This document shows positions 4,058 to 30,203 of a stretch of 64,000 bases of DNA, in pieces. The DNA comes from an uncultured Eubacteriales bacterium. Its GTDB lineage: Bacteria > Bacillota > Clostridia > Oscillospirales > Acutalibacteraceae. The stretch covers positions 12,898-76,897 of the forward strand of contig CAKSGV010000006.1 in the NCBI GenBank assembly GCA_934454845.1, in the 5' to 3' direction. Below the pieces are notes generated by a model. The model was not told where the DNA came from and did no database searches. It saw nothing but the letters and a program-made list of their open reading frames with translations. The stretch's first letter is position 1, and every line of letters starts with the position of its first letter. Made by a program: the position numbers and the translations under genes.

Positions 4058-4999
4058 TCAAGTAAAGTCAAACACATTTAATTTTTTATTAACATTTTCG
4101 ACTTCCACACCTTCAGGCAAAATAAAATTTACCGCTTTAGGGGCTATTTCAAATTTCATTTTTGAAATTTCCGATATCTCACCGTCAAGATTTACAGGTA
4201 CCGGTTTTTCCGAAGAAAATTCCATAGTCCTGCAGGTTTTTAAAACGCAGTAATCAAATTCCGCGTGTTTGCCTTTTTTATATTTGTTTAAAAAATTCGG
4301 TATTTTTAATTTAGATATTTTTTCAACAAGCGTAAAATCAAGCTGACCGTCAAAAGGATCGGCTTTGGGAGCTGCCATATATCCTCCGCCGTAAAAAGGA
4401 GCGTTAGCCGCAACGGCAAAAAGACAGTTTGAGAAAAACGATTTTTTACCGTCTAACGAAATCTTTGCCGAAATTCCTATCTTACCGAGAAATGTTTTAA
4501 CAATGGCAAGATTGTATGCAAGTGGACCCGTTACCAAAGGCAGGCGTTTATAGATCTGCATATCTCTCGCCACGACCGCATCCATTCCTATTGAGCATCC
4601 GTTAAGGCAATAAAAATCGTTTGCCTTTATCGCGTCTATTTTAACGCTTTTACCTTTTATTTGCGCGGCCAAATCCGAAAAGGGAGCCGAGGACTTGAAA
4701 AATTTCAGAAAATCGTTAGCCGAGCCACAGGGAATAACGCCGATCGATGCATTTTCAAAACCAATTATCCCGTTTAACACTTCAAATACAGTTCCCTCGC
4801 CGCCGCAGGCAAAGATTTTTATCTCTCCGCCTTTTTTTGCCTCGTTTTTTGCTATATTTACGGCTTCGCCCTTAAATTCGGTAAAATAAACCGCACTGTT
4901 TTCTTCCCTTTTCGGAAAGCAGGCTTTTATTTTATTATAGATATCTTTTTGAATTTTGCCTTTTCCTGCCGCGGGATTGATAATAAATATGTATCTCAT
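4058..4999 (-). CDS. Diacylglycerol/lipid kinase family protein (YegS/DagK-like)
   Basis: 313 aa with a DAGK catalytic-domain signature: IINPAAGKGK...FACGGEGTVFEVLNGI...IPCGSANDF. Confidence 0.85.
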   Translation of the reverse strand: MRYIFIINPAAGKGKIQKDIYNKIKACFPKREENSAVYFTEFKGEAVNIAKNEAKKGGEIKIFACGGEGTVFEVLNGIIGFENASIGVIPCGSANDFLKFFKSSAPFSDLAAQIKGKSVKIDAIKANDFYCLNGCSIGMDAVVARDMQIYKRLPLVTGPLAYNLAIVKTFLGKIGISAKISLDGKKSFFSNCLFAVAANAPFYGGGYMAAPKADPFDGQLDFTLVEKISKLKIPNFLNKYKKGKHAEFDYCVLKTCRTMEFSSEKPVPVNLDGEISEISKMKFEIAPKAVNFILPEGVEVENVNKKLNVFDFT

Positions 5000-7809: not shown

Positions 7810-8052
7810 TTATTCTATTATTCTGTAAAGGTTATCCGAGTCTTCTTTCTTAATTACCTCTTTAACCTCAGTTACTTCAATTTTAACATTTCTGTTTCCG
7901 AAAGCAATCTCTATTATATCCCCGGGTTTCACATCATAAGAGGCTCTGGCAATTTTTGAATTGACCGTTACTCTTCCTTTATCGCACGCCTCGTTTGCAA
8001 CGGTTCTGCGCTTGATAATTCTTGAAATTTTTAAAAATTTATCGAGTCTCAT
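7810..8052 (-). CDS. S4-domain RNA-binding protein (YabO/Hsp15-like)
   Basis: MRLDKFLKISRIIKRRTVANEACDKGRVTVNSKIARASYDVKPGDII is an S4 alpha-L motif. Confidence 0.85.
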   Translation of the reverse strand: MRLDKFLKISRIIKRRTVANEACDKGRVTVNSKIARASYDVKPGDIIEIAFGNRNVKIEVTEVKEVIKKEDSDNLYRIIE

Positions 8053-8059
8053 AAAAATA

Positions 8060-8105
8060 CCTTTAAAAAGCCGCCTTTATGATCTGATACCATAAAGGCG
8101 GCTTT
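8060..8105 (-). terminator. Intrinsic terminator after hup
   Basis: AAAGCCGCCTTTATG (8068-8082) pairs with CATAAAGGCGGCTTT (8091-8105), 13 nt beyond the hup stop. Confidence 0.7.
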
Positions 8106-8118
8106 AAAATTTAAAAAA

Positions 8119-8391
8119 TTATTTTATAGCATCCTTAAGAGCTTTGCCTGCTTTGAATACGGGATTCTTAGAAGCGGCAATGTTAATGGTCTGCTTTGTC
8201 TGCGGATTGATACCGGTTCTTGCAGCGCGCTCACGAACTTCAAAAGTTCCGAAGCCTACAAGCTGAACCTTTCCGTTTTCTTTAAGAGTTTCGGTTACAG
8301 CCTCAACAACAGCTGCAACAGCTTTTTCAGCATCTTTCTTAGAAAGATCTGCTTTTGCAGCAACGGCTGCAACTAATTCAGTCTTGTTCAT
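8119..8391 (-). CDS. hup: HU family DNA-binding protein
   Basis: [25 protein letters not shown]...[24 protein letters not shown]...[10 protein letters not shown] is canonical HU. Confidence 0.96.
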
Positions 8392-8589
8392 TGTTAGTCC
8401 TCCAAAAAATTAAGTATGTTTTAAAAAAGCCTAAAATCTGTTGGCTACATATATTATTAGCATATTTTAAAGTAAAAATCAACTGTTTTCCGCTACTTTT
8501 TATATTTTGTTCAAAAAAATTAAGATTTTTTAGTCAATTTAACCATAAGATTTCCCGATTTTCAACAAATTACAACTGATTTATACAAA

Positions 8590-25430: not shown

Positions 25431-26257
25431 TGGCTGGCTTTTTAGGCTTTGGAAATTACGAAAAAGAAGGTCCCGGAATCAGTAAAAACGCTCCTAAAAA
25501 AAAGCCGTTTTTCGCTTTTTTCGAAACATATTTCAGGAATGCCTGGAGATTTGTAACTTTAAATACAGTTTATATTCTGTGCTGTATTCCTGTTCTTTCC
25601 GTAGGTCTTGCTAATGCCGGAATAACAAATGTAACAAGAAATATAGCACGCGATAAACATTCCTTCGGGTTAAGCGATTACTTTGAAACCATTAAAAAGA
25701 ATTGGAAGCAAAGTTTGATAGTCGGAATTTTCAATCTGATTTTAACTGTGCTGATATCCTACGGATCTTACTATTATTATTTTCATCAGTCAAAAAACAA
25801 AGCGATAAATTTCACCGATTCGCTCGGATTCGGAATTTGCATTTTCGCGGCTTTTGTTTTTACCGTTATGCAGTATTATATGTGGACTATGCTTATAACA
25901 TTTAAGCTTTCGATAAAAAATATTTATAAAAACAGCTTTAAATTTGTTTTTATAAATCTTAAGAATAACTTTATCTGCTTTTTCTCAATGATATTGGTTT
26001 ATGCGCTTTTTGTAGGTGTTTTATTACTTATATCACTTGTAAATTTCCCGCTCGCCGTTGCGGTCACCGCAGTGCTTGCGATCTGCTTTTTGCCGGCGTT
26101 CAGATTTTTGCTTATTCAGTTCTGCACTTTCCCGGCAATCAAAAAATATATGATAGATCCATATTATGAGGAGCACCCGAACGACGATATCGAGCTTCGC
26201 AGAAACCTTGGCTTAGAAATTCCCGGCGATGAAGATGAGGAAGAGGATTCAGAATAA
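25430..26257 (+). CDS. YesL/DUF624 family membrane protein
   Basis: FFETYFRNAWRFVTLNTVYILCCIPVLSVGLANAG matches the DUF624 N-terminal pattern. The C-terminal tail is acidic. Confidence 0.68.
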   Translation: MAGFLGFGNYEKEGPGISKNAPKKKPFFAFFETYFRNAWRFVTLNTVYILCCIPVLSVGLANAGITNVTRNIARDKHSFGLSDYFETIKKNWKQSLIVGIFNLILTVLISYGSYYYYFHQSKNKAINFTDSLGFGICIFAAFVFTVMQYYMWTMLITFKLSIKNIYKNSFKFVFINLKNNFICFFSMILVYALFVGVLLLISLVNFPLAVAVTAVLAICFLPAFRFLLIQFCTFPAIKKYMIDPYYEEHPNDDIELRRNLGLEIPGDEDEEEDSE

Positions 26258-26266
26258 TAAAATAAT

Positions 26267-26305
26267 AAATACGGAGCATTTAAAATGCTCCGTATTTATT
26301 ATTTT
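26267..26305 (+). terminator. Intrinsic terminator
   Basis: AAATACGGAGCAT / ATGCTCCGTATTT hairpin followed by ATTATTTTAT. Confidence 0.75.
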
Positions 26306-26403
26306 ATGTAGCGTCTTTTTTTATTCCGAAAATCATTCTTAAAAAACCGCATAAAATTTTAGGACTTTTAATTAATACCACTTTCATAAAATTACCTCCC
26401 GGT

Positions 26404-26550
26404 TTATCTTTTTGAACACGAGCAACCGAGTATAATAACCCAGATTGCAAGTATTGCAATCAAGCACTTCGGCGGGCAAAAACAGCTTACAAGCAAACCG
26501 ACAGCAAAGGTTATCGCCACAATTCCTTTATTGCTTTTACCGCGTCGCAT
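26404..26550 (-). CDS. Candidate 48-aa Cys-rich two-helix membrane peptide (below the ORF-track cutoff)
   Basis: Hand translation gives MRRGKSNKGIVAITFAVGLLVSCFCPPKCLIAILAIWVIILGCSCSKR. A G-run SD-like element lies 5 nt upstream, and a TATAAT lies about 20 nt upstream on the same strand. Confidence 0.4.
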   Translation of the reverse strand: MRRGKSNKGIVAITFAVGLLVSCFCPPKCLIAILAIWVIILGCSCSKR

Positions 26551-26618
26551 TCACAGCCCCCCCGACTAATAACATTATAATCAAATTAAATAAAAATGTT
26601 ACAAATCGGCGTTTTAAC

Positions 26619-26647
26619 TTGACTTTTTAATTGTTTTAAAGTAAAAT
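26619..26647 (+). promoter_or_regulatory. Putative promoter of tRNA-Leu (TTGACT-17-TAAAAT)
   Basis: TTGACT 26619-26624, a 17 nt spacer, TAAAAT 26642-26647, 12 nt before the tRNA 5' end. Confidence 0.55.
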
Positions 26648-26659
26648 AATAAATATTCT

Positions 26660-26743
26660 GCGGATGTGGCGGAATTGGCAGACGCGCCAGACTTAGGATC
26701 TGGTGATTTCATCGTGGGGGTTCAAGTCCCTTCATCCGCACCA
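26660..26743 (+). tRNA. tRNA-Leu (anticodon UAG), CCA encoded
   Basis: Acceptor GCGGATG/CATCCGC, anticodon stem CCAGA/TCTGG with loop CTTAGGA, a long variable arm, T-loop TTCAAGT, and a terminal ACCA. Confidence 0.92.
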
Positions 26744-26750
26744 AACAAAA

Positions 26751-26780
26751 ATCCGTTCTCTTCTGAGAGCGGATTTTTTG
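26751..26780 (+). terminator. Intrinsic terminator after tRNA-Leu
   Basis: ATCCGTTCTC-ttct-GAGAGCGGAT followed by TTTTTGTTT. Confidence 0.72.
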
Positions 26781-26829
26781 TTTGTATTATTCAGTTTTAA
26801 ATTTTCATTTTTAAGTATTCATTAATTAA

Positions 26830-27486
26830 ATGAGGATTTTAAAAATGTCGGTGAATGTCGTATTTGAAACAGCTATAATTATATTGCCCGAACGAAAGAG
26901 AGGTGATATAATGGGAATGGATATTTTTGCTTATCTACTGTTACAAATAATTAACGGTTCAAATTGGAATCCGGAATTTGCCGAAAGTAGTAAATATAAA
27001 AATTGGATAGCCATTTTAGATTTAAAGACATGCTATGAATGCAGAAGTCGCCATGGAAAGATTTGGTTGATAAATGAAGAGACTGATAAAGAACCACCAT
27101 TGCATAATAGGTGCAGATGTAGTATACTTGTTATGAAAACAGTGAAATCCGGAACTGCTACAATTAATGGAAAAGATGGTGCAGACTGGACGCTCAAACA
27201 TGAATCAAAATTACCTGATTATTATATCGAATATAAGGAAGCTGAAAAATTAGGGTTTAAAAACTTTTTAGGTAATCTAAGTGTAGTGGTACCTGACCGC
27301 ATGATAACAAGAGGTGTATATAAGAATCGTAATGGTCATTTACCAAGTAAACAAGGTAGAATTTGGTATGAAGCTGATATCAATTATAAAGGCGGATTTC
27401 GAGACGGTCAAAGAATAATATATTCCAATGATGGATTAATATTTGTTTCGTATGACCATTATCAAACATTTTTTGAAATTGTATAG
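26830..27486 (+). CDS. Polymorphic-toxin-like protein: short phage MuF/SPP1-gp7 C-terminal motif fused to a barnase-family RNase
   Basis: WIAILDLKTCYECRSRHGKIW...EPPLHNRCRCSI is the MuF (Phage_Mu_F) signature. The C-terminal ~110 aa align to barnase (KLPDYYI..EAEKLGF...NRNGHLPSKQGRIWYEADINYKGGFRDGQRIIYSNDGLIFVSYDHYQTFFEI), with catalytic E, R, R and H retained. The true start may be ATG 26845 or 26911; both have SD-like sequences. Confidence 0.86.
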   Translation: MRILKMSVNVVFETAIIILPERKRGDIMGMDIFAYLLLQIINGSNWNPEFAESSKYKNWIAILDLKTCYECRSRHGKIWLINEETDKEPPLHNRCRCSILVMKTVKSGTATINGKDGADWTLKHESKLPDYYIEYKEAEKLGFKNFLGNLSVVVPDRMITRGVYKNRNGHLPSKQGRIWYEADINYKGGFRDGQRIIYSNDGLIFVSYDHYQTFFEIV

Positions 27487-27495
27487 GAGGAAAAA

Positions 27496-27816
27496 ATGAA
27501 CTACAATGATTATTATAAGTTTAAAGAAATAACAGAAAATCCCATTATATTGGATTTTTCCGAATGCAAATATTTAGGCGAAATTCACCTAATGCTTAAA
27601 GAAAAGTTTGGCTTGCCCGAATATTACGGGGAAAATTGGGATGCTCTTTGGGATTGTTTGGACGGTTTGTTTTATGAACGTGAAAATTTCTCTGCAGAAC
27701 TTCACGGATTTTATTCCATGAAAAAAGAATTACAAGATGAATGCAAATTGATGTTAGAAGTTTTTGATGATGTTCATAAAGAAACTCCGAATTTTGAGTA
27801 TAAAATTATATCATAA
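27496..27816 (+). CDS. Barstar-family RNase inhibitor (immunity protein)
   Basis: LPEYYGENWDALWDCL matches the barstar barnase-binding helix (LPEYYGENLDALWDCL in B. amyloliquefaciens barstar). GGAGG lies 4 nt upstream and the gene starts 9 nt after the toxin stop. Confidence 0.9.
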   Translation: MNYNDYYKFKEITENPIILDFSECKYLGEIHLMLKEKFGLPEYYGENWDALWDCLDGLFYERENFSAELHGFYSMKKELQDECKLMLEVFDDVHKETPNFEYKIIS

Positions 27817-27900
27817 ATTTTTTTATTAAATGTTGCAAGACTTCAAATATCTCGCTCTCCGCATAATCGGACAAAAATATCTTTTTTGTAGTTTCTTCAC

Positions 27901-27945
27901 AAAACCCGGCAAGTATCAAAAGATACTTGCCGGGTTTTTATTGAT
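27901..27945 (+). terminator. Strong intrinsic terminator after the toxin/immunity pair
   Basis: AAAACCCGGCAAGTATC-aaaa-GATACTTGCCGGGTTTTT. Confidence 0.82.
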
Positions 27946-28069
27946 AATTCATTTGTATTCCGCAAATATATACGGAACACGGATCAGTTATCATTATTTT
28001 TTTATATAGATCTGTACTGTCAAAGGCGGGAGAAATGGTCACTCCTCAGAACAGTCTGCCCGATAAGCA

Positions 28070-28110
28070 ATCGGTTACAGGTAAAAATTTACCTGTAACC
28101 GATATTTTTT
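28070..28110. terminator. Hairpin terminator at the 3' end of the secreted-protein gene
   Basis: ATCGGTTACAGGTAAA-aat-TTACCTGTAACCGAT with a T-run on the plus side. It directly abuts the stop at 28109. Confidence 0.55.
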
Positions 28111-28645
28111 AGTCGATCTTTACTGTTACTGTTCCGATTTCAGTATTGTCAGCAGTATCCTTTGAAAGCTTGCCCGAAAGAACTAACTGAGCAGATTCAG
28201 AAGGCGCATTATCATAATTTCCTAAAGCAAGCTCGGCCGCAGATCCGAGCGCAAACGAAGTTTTTTCAGTTCCGCTTATCATAAAAGAGCCGTTAACATC
28301 TTCAAAGCCTGAATTTTTATCATAGGTAAAGTTAGCGTTTATCGCGGCATTTGAGTGATTTTTAACGGTGATCTTATTGCCGGTTGAATTCCAGCTGCCG
28401 GCAGTTGCGCCTGTATAAGAATGAGTTTCCGGATTCCATTGACCTTCAGAGGCGTCTTTAAAAGTATAGCTTAATTCCTCCCAGGTGATGTCAACACTGT
28501 AAATAGTGTCGCTTGACGAACCAGCCTGATAGCTCGCCTTTACGCTGTGAGAATCACTTTCGCCTGCAGTGAGGGCCAATGCTGAAAAAGAGCTTACAGA
28601 GCAAGCGATCGCCACAGCTAAAACTAATGCTAAATATTTTTTCAT
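28109..28645 (-). CDS. Secreted protein, unknown function (Sec signal peptide, beta-rich)
   Basis: MKKYLALVLAVAIACSVSSFSALA signal peptide. The mature part is rich in S/T/N/G with alternating hydrophobic residues. I recognise no named domain. Confidence 0.6.
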   Translation of the reverse strand: MKKYLALVLAVAIACSVSSFSALALTAGESDSHSVKASYQAGSSSDTIYSVDITWEELSYTFKDASEGQWNPETHSYTGATAGSWNSTGNKITVKNHSNAAINANFTYDKNSGFEDVNGSFMISGTEKTSFALGSAAELALGNYDNAPSESAQLVLSGKLSKDTADNTEIGTVTVKID

Positions 28646-28738: not shown

Positions 28739-29284
28739 TTAATCGGCAACAGTTACCGTCACGGGAATTTCGGTGTTTACTTTTGCCGCTTCCCCGCTTT
28801 GCCTGTCAAAATAAGATATAACGAATTTACTTTCATACTCCCCTGCCTGCAATAAATTTTCAGTCCCTTTTAAAAGGTCAAGCTTAGTTACTTTATTACC
28901 GGGAGAAAGAGTACCCGATTTCATAACAACGGTGTCTTTTATAACGAGCTGTAATACAACATCGTGCGTCGATTTAGAGGGGTTCGCAAACAATAAAGCT
29001 ACTTTTTTATCCGAAAGATCTATGCTGACGGCTTTTGAATATGTCAAAGATACCGCTCCTCCGCCATTAGGCGCCGATAATTTAGAAGAATTATCATCGC
29101 CTATAGGCTCTGCGCTGATTTCGGAAGATTTAGGAGCTTTATCGGGAGTAAGCTTAGATGATGACTTCCCTGATTTTTTAAAAAACATTGCAAAAACCGT
29201 TACACTGAATAAAAAAAGCAAAAGCAACAAGAGCAGTAAAAGCAAAATCCGGCGCTTTTTACTTTTCTTTTTCTCATTTTCCAT
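28739..29284 (-). CDS. N-terminally anchored extracytoplasmic protein, unknown function
   Basis: Basic N-terminus, a poly-Leu TM helix, an S/K-rich linker, and a ~100 aa beta-rich C-terminal domain. Confidence 0.6.
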   Translation of the reverse strand: MENEKKKSKKRRILLLLLLLLLLFLFSVTVFAMFFKKSGKSSSKLTPDKAPKSSEISAEPIGDDNSSKLSAPNGGGAVSLTYSKAVSIDLSDKKVALLFANPSKSTHDVVLQLVIKDTVVMKSGTLSPGNKVTKLDLLKGTENLLQAGEYESKFVISYFDRQSGEAAKVNTEIPVTVTVAD

Positions 29285-29405: not shown

Positions 29406-30203
29406 ATGAATACAAAAAATTTTTTTCAGATATCCGAGGCGGCTCAATCCTGCGGAGTTTCGCGCAGCACTATTATGCGAATGGAAGAAAAAGGATTGCT
29501 AAAACCTATCTACATTTCTCCCGAAAACGGAAGAAGATATTATGATAACCATAATATCGCACGGATATTGCAGATCGAAAAATTTAAAATAATGGGACTT
29601 AGCACCGCAGATATAATAGAATATTTTAATCGCGGAGGCGAGGCGGCTGATCTGCTTAAAATTCTTGAAAACAAACTTCACGATCTTACGCGCAGTGTGG
29701 AAGAATTGCGGATAAGAGCCGAAAAAAGCGGCAGCATATCAGTTCATATAATGAATTTACCCGAAGTGATATGTTGTATGAGAAAATGTGAGGGACACAC
29801 GATAAAAGAAAAATATGACGCTATGTATGATTTTTACAGCGAGTGTATTCGAAAAGGGTTTAAATTATCGAGTGAACCTATCTTTTCTATCTCAGAGCGC
29901 TGCGATTATCTTGACGGATATATCGGCGATACTCCATATCCTTTTTGGGTGGGCATTCCGATGATAAAAGAAAAAGCTCCTAAAGAAGCGGTAACCTTAC
30001 CTGCCTGCAAAGCACTTTCCGTGCTATATTGCGGCGGATACGAAGAAATCGACAATGCCTGGCTCACTTTAGGCAAAGAAGTTAAATCGAGAGGGTTAAA
30101 AGTAAAAGATTTTCCGCGTGTTTTAGGTATAGTCGCGCCATACACCGGCCGTGAGATAGAAACGCGCCGATACTGCCACCGCCTTGTCTTGCCGATAGAA
30201 TAA
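29406..30203 (+). CDS. MerR family transcriptional regulator with a GyrI-like effector-binding domain (BmrR-type)
   Basis: N-terminal FQISEAAQSCGVSRSTIMRMEEKGLLKP HTH, a coiled-coil linker, and a ~150 aa C-terminal GyrI-like region. Confidence 0.87.
   Translation: MNTKNFFQISEAAQSCGVSRSTIMRMEEKGLLKPIYISPENGRRYYDNHNIARILQIEKFKIMGLSTADIIEYFNRGGEAADLLKILENKLHDLTRSVEELRIRAEKSGSISVHIMNLPEVICCMRKCEGHTIKEKYDAMYDFYSECIRKGFKLSSEPIFSISERCDYLDGYIGDTPYPFWVGIPMIKEKAPKEAVTLPACKALSVLYCGGYEEIDNAWLTLGKEVKSRGLKVKDFPRVLGIVAPYTGREIETRRYCHRLVLPIE

Follow-up and report, generated by a model that had tools for sequence, protein, structure and literature searches.

What does a barnase-type RNase, fused to a fragment of the phage head-morphogenesis protein MuF and followed by its barstar inhibitor, do just downstream of a tRNA gene in a bacterial chromosome? 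The question is raised by positions 26660-27945 of a 64,000-nt stretch of DNA from an uncultured Eubacteriales bacterium (hereafter the window, whose coordinates are used unless another locus is named). A sequence-only reading had taken the pair for an orphan, a stranded or domesticated toxin-immunity unit or the remnant of a decayed prophage. We arrive at a different view, to which we assign a probability of roughly 60%: positions 26836-27904 are one allele of a conserved, mobile two-gene toxin-immunity cassette, which carries its own promoter, ribosome binding site (RBS) and terminator, forms a mini-island without an integrase, and has a role in competition or kin discrimination.

Toxin and immunity proteins

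The toxin is predicted to consist of an N-terminal module (aa 1-83, 26911-27159; all features of the cassette region lie on the forward strand) with a helix and a Cys2-His-Cys2 zinc knuckle homologous to MuF/SPP1 gp7, and a barnase-type RNase domain (aa 84-191 plus the stop codon, 27160-27486). A protein of 218 aa had been proposed at first. The corresponding open reading frame (26830-27486) does exist, but its start lies too early, and the real start is almost certainly the ATG at 26911, giving 191 aa, because this codon sits 5 nt past the RBS GAGAGGTG with the same spacing as in relatives, the homologues are 188-191 aa long, and 26836-26910 is a conserved non-coding promoter block. The same homologue lengths and RBS spacing, together with the conserved promoter region 26830-26910, rule out the longer frame from 26830 as the real protein.

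The RNase domain matches PF00545 (Ribonuclease, E 8e-10), toxin residues 84-190 align to residues 3-109 of barnase in a phmmer search of the PDB (E 3e-27), and a Foldseek comparison with barnase structures gives TM-scores of 0.87-0.90, normalised to barnase, at ~49% identity. The AlphaFold2 model of the toxin, built on 32 homologues, has a pLDDT of 90.5 and a pTM of 0.85. Glu73, Arg83, Arg87 and His102 (barnase numbering) are all retained, with the toxin motifs WYEAD, FRDGQR and DHYQTF aligning to WREAD, FRNSDR and DHYQTF of barnase; among the 32 homologues R164, R168 and H183 are invariant and E154 nearly so, and Lys27 of barnase is displaced by one position in the toxin alignment. Judged by these alignments, the barnase domain appears complete and its catalytic residues intact, and the earlier description of a complete barnase-type RNase with the catalytic Glu, two Arg and His is borne out by the barnase structures and PF00545. 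At 108 aa, the domain also has the length of at least ~100 aa by which the C-terminal toxin of MuF toxins is recognised. The toxin begins with MGMDIFAYLLLQIING, in which inspection finds no basic residue and no basic n-region; in the model this end forms helix 3-15 of the zinc module, and the mean pLDDT is 61 over residues 1-10 and 83 over residues 11-20.

The barstar-type immunity gene (27496-27816, 106 aa) follows the toxin stop codon after a gap of 9 nt. Its product matches PF01337 (E 4e-20), the only family found in it, and has no DNA-binding domain. In the alignment to a solved barstar (1A19), LPEYYGENWDALWDCL, which defines the subtype of the window copy, stands opposite LPEYYGENLDALWDCL; Tyr29, Asp35, Trp38 and Asp39 are kept, and an acidic residue occupies the position of Glu76. 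Both the family match and this alignment agree with the previous claim of a cognate barstar with a preserved barnase-binding helix.

Distribution of the cassette family

Relatives of the toxin at E ≤ 1e-3 form 1291 clusters at 90% identity; among the best 120 clusters listed, most are 188-191 aa long and most carry both Pfam domains, and PF00545 and PF04233 (Phage_Mu_F) are both hit in 32 of 32 aligned members. From a collection with one genome per species, 555 confirmed matching stretches were retrieved by means of barnase motifs, and the best 80 of these, the only ones in which the N-terminal module was checked, were examined as loci. All 80 belong to Clostridia of gut or rumen, largely Oscillospiraceae, Acutalibacteraceae and Ruminococcaceae, some being labelled Monoglobus, Lachnospiraceae or unclassified and one coming from an isolate, Pseudoflavonifractor sp. 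MSJ-30 (L087). Barstar directly follows the toxin in 79 of the 80, and several loci contain tandem cassettes or extra barstars.

The long contigs of two homologue loci (L008 and L011) place the cassette among housekeeping genes, at unrelated sites. The 150 nearest neighbour open reading frames (ORFs) of 38 loci hit 184 Pfam families, and no phage structural or integrase family is found among the recurrent ones (HTH_3 occurs eight times, rve twice). XRE-type regulators with the HTH_3 domain are the commonest neighbours of the cassette (8/150 nearest ORFs; L030-L097). No full-length homologue was found in 50,697 phage genomes, and 2.9 million viral contigs yielded two loci only. In the first (L112, 8542-9464), an IMG/VR contig of an HK97-type siphophage, the cassette lies on the opposite strand within the tail-gene block, like a moron; the annotated ORFs of this contig include a terminase, an HK97-type portal, a ClpP-capsid fusion, a tape measure protein and Dit, and no MuF. 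In the other (L113) it follows an endolysin gene at the contig end. The large terminase of L112 is split into separate ATPase and nuclease ORFs.

Values of dN/dS are 0.11 for the N-terminal module and 0.14 for the barnase domain, and both domains are under purifying selection. On these comparisons, the short form of 189-191 aa is a conserved, self-standing family that is found almost always outside prophages. It is very unlikely to be a one-off relic, because the same short form recurs among hundreds of species at unrelated loci. The labels orphan, stranded and decayed-prophage remnant find no support in a conserved family with its own promoter and RBS that is subject to purifying selection, resides among housekeeping genes and, as described below, is exchanged as a unit of 1.08 kb.

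Transfer and insertion sites

Homology between the window and two non-syntenic relatives (L030 and L031) is limited to 26836-27904/27914; the toxin gene is 99-100% identical to that of L030 in 100-nt windows, and the flanks are at the random level. The left edge of this transferable unit of ~1.08 kb is the conserved promoter block, and the right edge is …CTTCACAAAA, just before a locus-specific hairpin. The unit contains only toxin and barstar and encodes no recombinase. The right flank of a strain contig, L019, is 99.96% identical to the window, from which the contig diverges exactly at 27904/27905; some strains therefore probably carry something else, or nothing, at the cassette site. The sequence of L019 beyond the cassette right edge (4075-4113) is unrelated, and no match was found for this 38-mer among the sequences compared.

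The cassette is compositionally foreign, with a GC content of 31.8% against 39.5% for the window (0.6th percentile) and a toxin GC3 of 22.5% against 34-46% in neighbouring genes, and the A+T-richness noted from the sequence is real. The proposed link with tRNA genes also stands, and it is family-wide: of the 67 eligible loci, 18 have a co-oriented tRNA gene at most 700 nt upstream, with 11 anticodons represented and a background of ~1% (binomial P ~3e-20). Bracketing direct repeats of at least 26 nt were found in 16/49 loci, compared with 1/196 controls in which an identical arrangement was displaced by 4.5 or 7 kb. The repeats of L084 (6742-6805 and 7955-8018) reproduce 64 nt from the 3' part of tRNA-Ala without a mismatch, and those of L087 (9849-9912 and 11034-11097) comprise 64 nt with the 3' end of tRNA-Trp and a terminator; perfect or 97% identical, they enclose a 1.2-kb unit holding only toxin and barstar, and they look like the attL/attR of an integrase-less element. 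Repeats of 262 nt and 74-105 nt occur in L077 and L044, respectively, gene 3' ends are duplicated in L063, L092 and L102, and terminator hairpins in L079, L088, L060, L094 and L075. The repeats are thus target-derived, range from 26 to 262 nt and differ between loci, with no common att sequence; a search of 8 related loci with Rfam explained none of them. A Gut-1 RNA (RF01706, 78 bits) is located at 11147-11222 of L092, directly after the right-hand 180-nt repeat.

By this pattern, the cassette is horizontally mobile and prefers sites just downstream of tRNA genes and terminators. The insertions would fit three routes, namely the single crossover of a circle made of the cassette and one flank copy, an integrase acting in trans as in cis-mobilizable elements (CIMEs), and template switching.

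Allele replacement and co-variation

A comparison of the tRNA-Leu locus in relatives, suggested along with the earlier claims, found the same site with a different allele in one syntenic genome (L039, UMGS949) besides the departure of L019 at the right edge. In L039 the cassette is likewise preceded by tRNA-Leu(UAG), and the flanks near it are 96-100% identical to the window, while between the toxin start and a point two-thirds of the way through barstar identity is 52-75% (66% for the allele). The toxin dS between the two is saturated at 2.3, against 0.03-0.27 in the flanking genes, and its dN/dS is 0.12 overall. The last 36 barstar codons have a dS of 0, which points to a recombination breakpoint inside barstar. 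The saturated dS, the low dN/dS and the near-identical flanks together indicate that an old functional allele was swapped in, and the first two of these rule out rapid positive selection in situ as the source of the divergence.

L039 also contains a second, decayed cassette (7932-8558), formed by a stump of the window-type toxin (aa 163-191, the last 29 codons) and an intact barstar, also of the window type (93% identity). This remnant is wedged between the 3' end of tRNA-Leu and terminator T1 of the tRNA, and is joined at the near-repeat CACCAAA/CACAAA. The tandem barstars of L008 and L011 are 70-79% identical, with their differences centred on the barnase-binding helix (LPEYYGENWDALWDCL vs FHDFYGENWDALWDLM). 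Across loci, a given subtype of the toxin loop is consistently found with a given barstar subtype, and the second barstar is of the other subtype.

Origin of the N-terminal module

The MuF C-terminal signature that had been recognised in the toxin is confirmed along four independent lines in addition to PF04233. PF04233 is matched just under its cut-off (29.1 vs 29.6 bits) and only at model positions 61-111 of 112, and TIGR01641 (phageSPP1_gp7) is matched by the N-terminal domain alone with 40.4 bits (cut-off 39.65; model positions 53-106 of 109). PHROG head-morphogenesis families, including PHROG 241, match the module with E down to 4e-12, Foldseek aligns ~48 residues to many phage minor capsid proteins in BFVD (root-mean-square deviation 1.4-2 Å, probability 1.0), and tblastn matches the module to annotated phage MuF genes. 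One of these, a 314-aa MuF of Sphingomonas phage Kimi whose gene lies after terminase and portal, is matched in its last 102 residues; the counterpart of the module is the last ~60-100 residues of the canonical 314-aa MuF. D37, C41, C44, H65, C68, R69 and C70 of the MuF signature are invariant in the 32 homologues. Of the 83 aa, ~50 residues are homologous to the terminal zinc motif of MuF/SPP1 gp7, and protein identity to phage MuFs is 28-45%. By these alignments, only the terminal zinc motif of MuF is retained, and the 83-aa module falls well short of the full MuF module (PF04233/PF06152-type, ~250 aa or more) by which MuF polymorphic toxins are defined.

A HMMER search of 1.84 billion representatives with this module alone returned 257 proteins, nearly all short and with the module at the N-terminus; most of the 35 that were read run on into barnase or a truncated or frameshifted barnase, and canonical long MuF proteins enter the search only near E 1e-5. 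Two ideas about the module were discarded. It was not found joined to other toxin domains in this search, as a polymorphic C-terminus would have it. Neither does it look like an orphan module awaiting recombination onto a phage MuF gene: with 28-45% protein identity, homology at the DNA level would be insufficient, and the gene comes with a start codon and an RBS of its own.

Function and alternative explanations

In the reading that we prefer, the barnase domain would cleave cellular RNA in cells without the matching barstar, the carrier being protected one-to-one by its own, and the cassette would serve competition or kin discrimination among related strains in the manner of a bacteriocin or polymorphic toxin. 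That the toxin reaches other cells is suggested by the retention of non-cognate barstars, the toxin-first gene order and the swapping of old alleles between near-identical genomes. The MuF motif may be a delivery handle, and our most specific guess is that it docks to a phage portal, so that the toxin would travel in the capsids of a phage encoded elsewhere. Spread without an enzyme of its own could proceed by the homologous single crossover of a looped-out circle, through an integrase in trans or as phage cargo. A more elaborate proposal, which we hold to be speculative and rather improbable, is that the ~50-residue zinc motif is a minimal capsid-entry tag by which the chromosomally encoded barnase docks on the portal of any phage under assembly in the cell and is carried in its capsids, which would arm the host's phages against cells without the right barstar or spoil an invader's progeny, while the cassette loops out between repeats and re-enters at tRNA genes or terminators by RecA-mediated single crossover or with a borrowed integrase.

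Several points weigh against a cassette directed at other cells and moving in this way. The toxin has no recognisable export signal and neither an LXG/WXG domain nor any other domain known for trafficking, and genes for secretion or of phage are absent from its surroundings. Only ~50 of the at least 250 residues of a MuF module are kept; the module seems, in the model, to be packed tightly on barnase (pTM 0.85), and an RNA-binding or regulatory extension is equally conceivable. Nothing relevant came out of a literature search on what the MuF zinc motif does, and no source that was found states which part of MuF binds the portal. Replacement of alleles could by itself have left the orphan barstars behind. 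As to mobility, the window copy has no flanking direct repeat of more than 8 nt, also when the 3' end of tRNA-Leu is searched for downstream, where only a weak resemblance (CACCAAAC/CACAAAAC) is seen. No clean empty site was recovered from the contigs that encode the exact DUF624 protein of the window, all of which end inside the tRNA, or from a metagenome scan with DUF624, in which L039 is the sole syntenic contig and more distant relatives are rearranged.

As the main rival reading, the cassette might instead be an intracellular selfish or defensive module that acts within its carrier by addiction or abortive infection, a barnase freed by cassette loss or by a phage-triggered event destroying RNA and killing the cell, and the MuF-like motif serving possibly as bait for a phage portal or head protein. 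We consider this unlikely, with enough in its favour to be taken seriously: a small mobile unit of two genes that lacks both a mobility gene and an export signal would suit such a role, as would the purifying selection on the phage-derived module and the persistence of toxin stumps with live inhibitors at insertion sites. The opposite-strand, moron-like insert in the tail module of L112 and the copy after the endolysin in L113 fit as well, superinfection-exclusion genes being typical of such phage positions. The toxin gene comes first, however, the barstar lacks a domain for DNA binding, and no sign of a labile antitoxin is seen; the binding between barnase and barstar is known to be extremely tight. 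A scan of toxin, barstar and neighbours with PADLOC-DB 2.0 matched no defence model, its sole hit being a weak helix-turn-helix (HTH) match of a MerR gene, and a literature search on barnase/barstar as a defence system found nothing relevant. Moreover, genomes keep intact barstars for a toxin subtype that they do not encode, which is expected for an incoming toxin and not for a purely internal switch.

The exact C-terminal end of canonical MuF, where toxins are normally appended, is the part that has been retained, tRNA genes are classical phage attachment sites, and rare copies do occur within phage genomes, all of which would suit a one-off relic, that is, a prophage at tRNA-Leu that decayed and left a 5'-truncated MuF-barnase gene with its immunity gene. 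A relic of this kind is very improbable given that the form of 189-191 aa, complete with an RBS, a start codon and an N-terminal helix of its own, is found in hundreds of species at unrelated loci, that its module has a dN/dS of 0.11 and is only distantly related to full-length MuF (E ~1e-5), that unit boundaries are identical in non-syntenic genomes, and that the window contains no other phage pseudogene or att repeat. We give equally little credence to a housekeeping extracellular RNase, used in RNA scavenging as for Bacillus barnase, with barstar protecting the producer and the MuF-like part being a folding or solubility appendage. It would explain the ~49% identity to barnase, the full catalytic set and the classical barnase-barstar pairing; it sits badly with an N-terminus that has no basic residue, shows no signal peptide on inspection and is predicted to fold within the zinc module. 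Neither horizontal transfer nor an atypical base composition is expected of a nutritional enzyme, and the swapping of ancient alleles between near-identical genomes, the co-variation of toxin and immunity subtypes and the keeping of orphan immunity genes argue against it too.

Relation to known systems

The combination of MuF, Tox-Barnase and Imm-Barstar has already been catalogued (Zhang et al. 2012, PMC3482391), and capsid targeting is a proposed model for MuF toxins (PMC5576092, PMC6316719). The cassette shares with the MuF polymorphic toxins, including Apk2 and Bxa (PMC10083569, PMC11699363), a MuF-family N-terminus, a toxin domain and a small immunity gene downstream, and extra immunity genes occur in both. 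It departs from them in three respects. The canonical toxins have the whole module of at least 250 aa and lie beside portal and terminase genes, whereas the cassette toxin has ~50 MuF residues in 191 aa. According to Jamet et al. (2017, PMC5576092), they are encoded "exclusively" by phages or prophages, and 96% of the muf genes in bacteria belong to prophages or remnants of them, whereas the cassette is almost never in phage and, in L112, the one phage with a head module, occupies a place in the tail region on the opposite strand. Finally, they combine one N-terminus with many toxin domains, whereas the N-terminal module of the cassette occurs almost only with barnase, and its polymorphism is allelic, within barnase and barstar. 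The pair is best described as a MuF-type barnase/barstar reduced to a prophage-independent, integrase-less mini-island, the domain combination being known before.

Both partners align full-length to the barnase and barstar of Bacillus amyloliquefaciens (PDB 1BRS, 1A2P, 1A19) and share with them the catalytic residues and the binding helix of barstar. The logic of a nuclease plus an intracellular inhibitor is also the same. Bacillus barnase has a Sec signal and a propeptide, is secreted and is encoded at a fixed locus. The cassette toxin, in contrast, has a phage-derived zinc module in place of a leader, and the cassette is mobile and polymorphic, orphan barstars often being found with it. With contact-dependent inhibition (CDI) and Rhs-type loci it shares the toxin stump and intact immunity gene beside a full pair (L039), breakpoints in conserved ends, the co-variation of toxin and immunity types and the keeping of non-cognate immunity genes; unlike them it has no large delivery gene upstream with which to recombine, and each unit is a complete gene that has a promoter and a start codon of its own. 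Toxin-antitoxin systems of type II with BECR-fold RNases (RelE-like) are similar in being two-gene operons, often on mobile DNA, in which an RNase from the same broad class of folds is paired with a protein inhibitor, but differ from the cassette in its toxin-first order, its barstar inhibitor without a DNA-binding domain and its immunity-subtype polymorphism with orphan inhibitors.

As a mobile unit, the cassette resembles CIMEs, the att-flanked islands without an integrase catalogued in ICEberg 2.0 (PMC6323972). It likewise encodes no recombinase and is flanked by direct repeats of tRNA 3' ends in L084, L087, L077 and L044. Unlike in CIMEs, the repeats vary by locus with no single att site, and the window copy has no repeat. 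A unit of ~1.1-1.6 kb appears to be much smaller than known CIMEs. Phage morons offer a further parallel, being autonomous, AT-rich units with their own promoter and terminator, and the insert in L112 is moron-like.

The family shows that a MuF signature with a toxin can persist in the chromosomes of hundreds of gut and rumen Clostridia as a very small, autonomous cassette; databases mislabel the toxin genes as "minor capsid protein". The ~50 conserved MuF residues would be a minimal construct for the question of portal binding and capsid loading, and the co-varying specificity types amount to a natural panel of barnase/barstar pairs. The tRNA preference and the target-derived repeats without a recombinase point to an under-described movement of very small islands.

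Locus layout and neighbouring genes

The window is ordinary chromosome with core genes. Its annotated genes include GroES, RelA/SpoT, RecJ, glycosyltransferases, an ABC transporter, OGG, DUF624, MerR, dUTPase and NrdDG, as well as glutamate and glutamine synthases, an ammonium transporter, Rnf and S1. Among these annotated genes, which cover most of the 64 kb, none was found to belong to a phage, integrase or transposase family, in agreement with the sequence-only reading.

tRNA genes were called with ARAGORN and Rfam, and hairpins with a terminator scan and an inverted-repeat search. The tRNA-Leu gene (anticodon UAG, 26660-26743; ARAGORN, and Rfam tRNA at 57.6 bits) is co-oriented with the toxin gene, which starts 168 nt downstream, and the tRNA is the sole credible match in an Rfam scan of 26200-28300 (E ≤ 1). 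It is followed by its terminator T1 (26747-26778; terminator scan, inverted repeat I2). The left end of the transferable unit, with promoter and 5' untranslated region, spans 26836-26910, homology with L030 and L031 beginning at 26836 and conserved blocks being visible in alignment A3. A -35-like GTGAAT (26851-26856), a -10 TATAAT (26874-26879) and the RBS AGAGAGGTG (26897-26905) were read from the sequence. Overlapping the -35 is a 15-nt motif, ATGTCGGTGAATGTC (26845-26859), in which TGTCG occurs twice, 10 nt apart. With 0-2 mismatches it recurs at -51 to -66, typically ~52 nt ahead of the toxin start, in 14 of 18 toxin copies of the closest loci (L030-L045), start positions being estimated from partial tblastn matches, and coding identity is down to ~56% in these loci; it looks like a candidate operator or activator site. 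The 3' untranslated tail (27817-27904) is conserved and forms the right end of the unit, homology with L030, L031 and L032 stopping at 27904-27914. Terminator T2 (27901-27938; inverted repeat I3, alignment A4) combines a perfect stem of 17 bp with a downstream run of T and is specific to this locus, a different hairpin standing at the same point in other loci. The two hairpins correspond to the bracketing terminators seen earlier.

Short-read contigs of this species break repeatedly inside tRNA-Leu (L001-L003 end at 26688) and at the toxin start (L023 and L026 begin at 26901 and 26917, respectively). The interval 26688-26900 assembles poorly, owing either to the tRNA as a repeat or to strain variation.

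Between the terminator of DUF624 and the tRNA, a 48-aa ORF on the reverse strand (26404-26550) is very hydrophobic and Cys-rich and has no family match. On the other side of the cassette, two adjacent genes on the reverse strand (28109-28645 and 28739-29284) have products that match no Pfam family and carry a signal or transmembrane segment at the N-terminus; this pair is 98-99% conserved in L039 and adjoins the gene of the MerR regulator (29406-30203), whose weak HTH match in PADLOC is to the "mad1" model.

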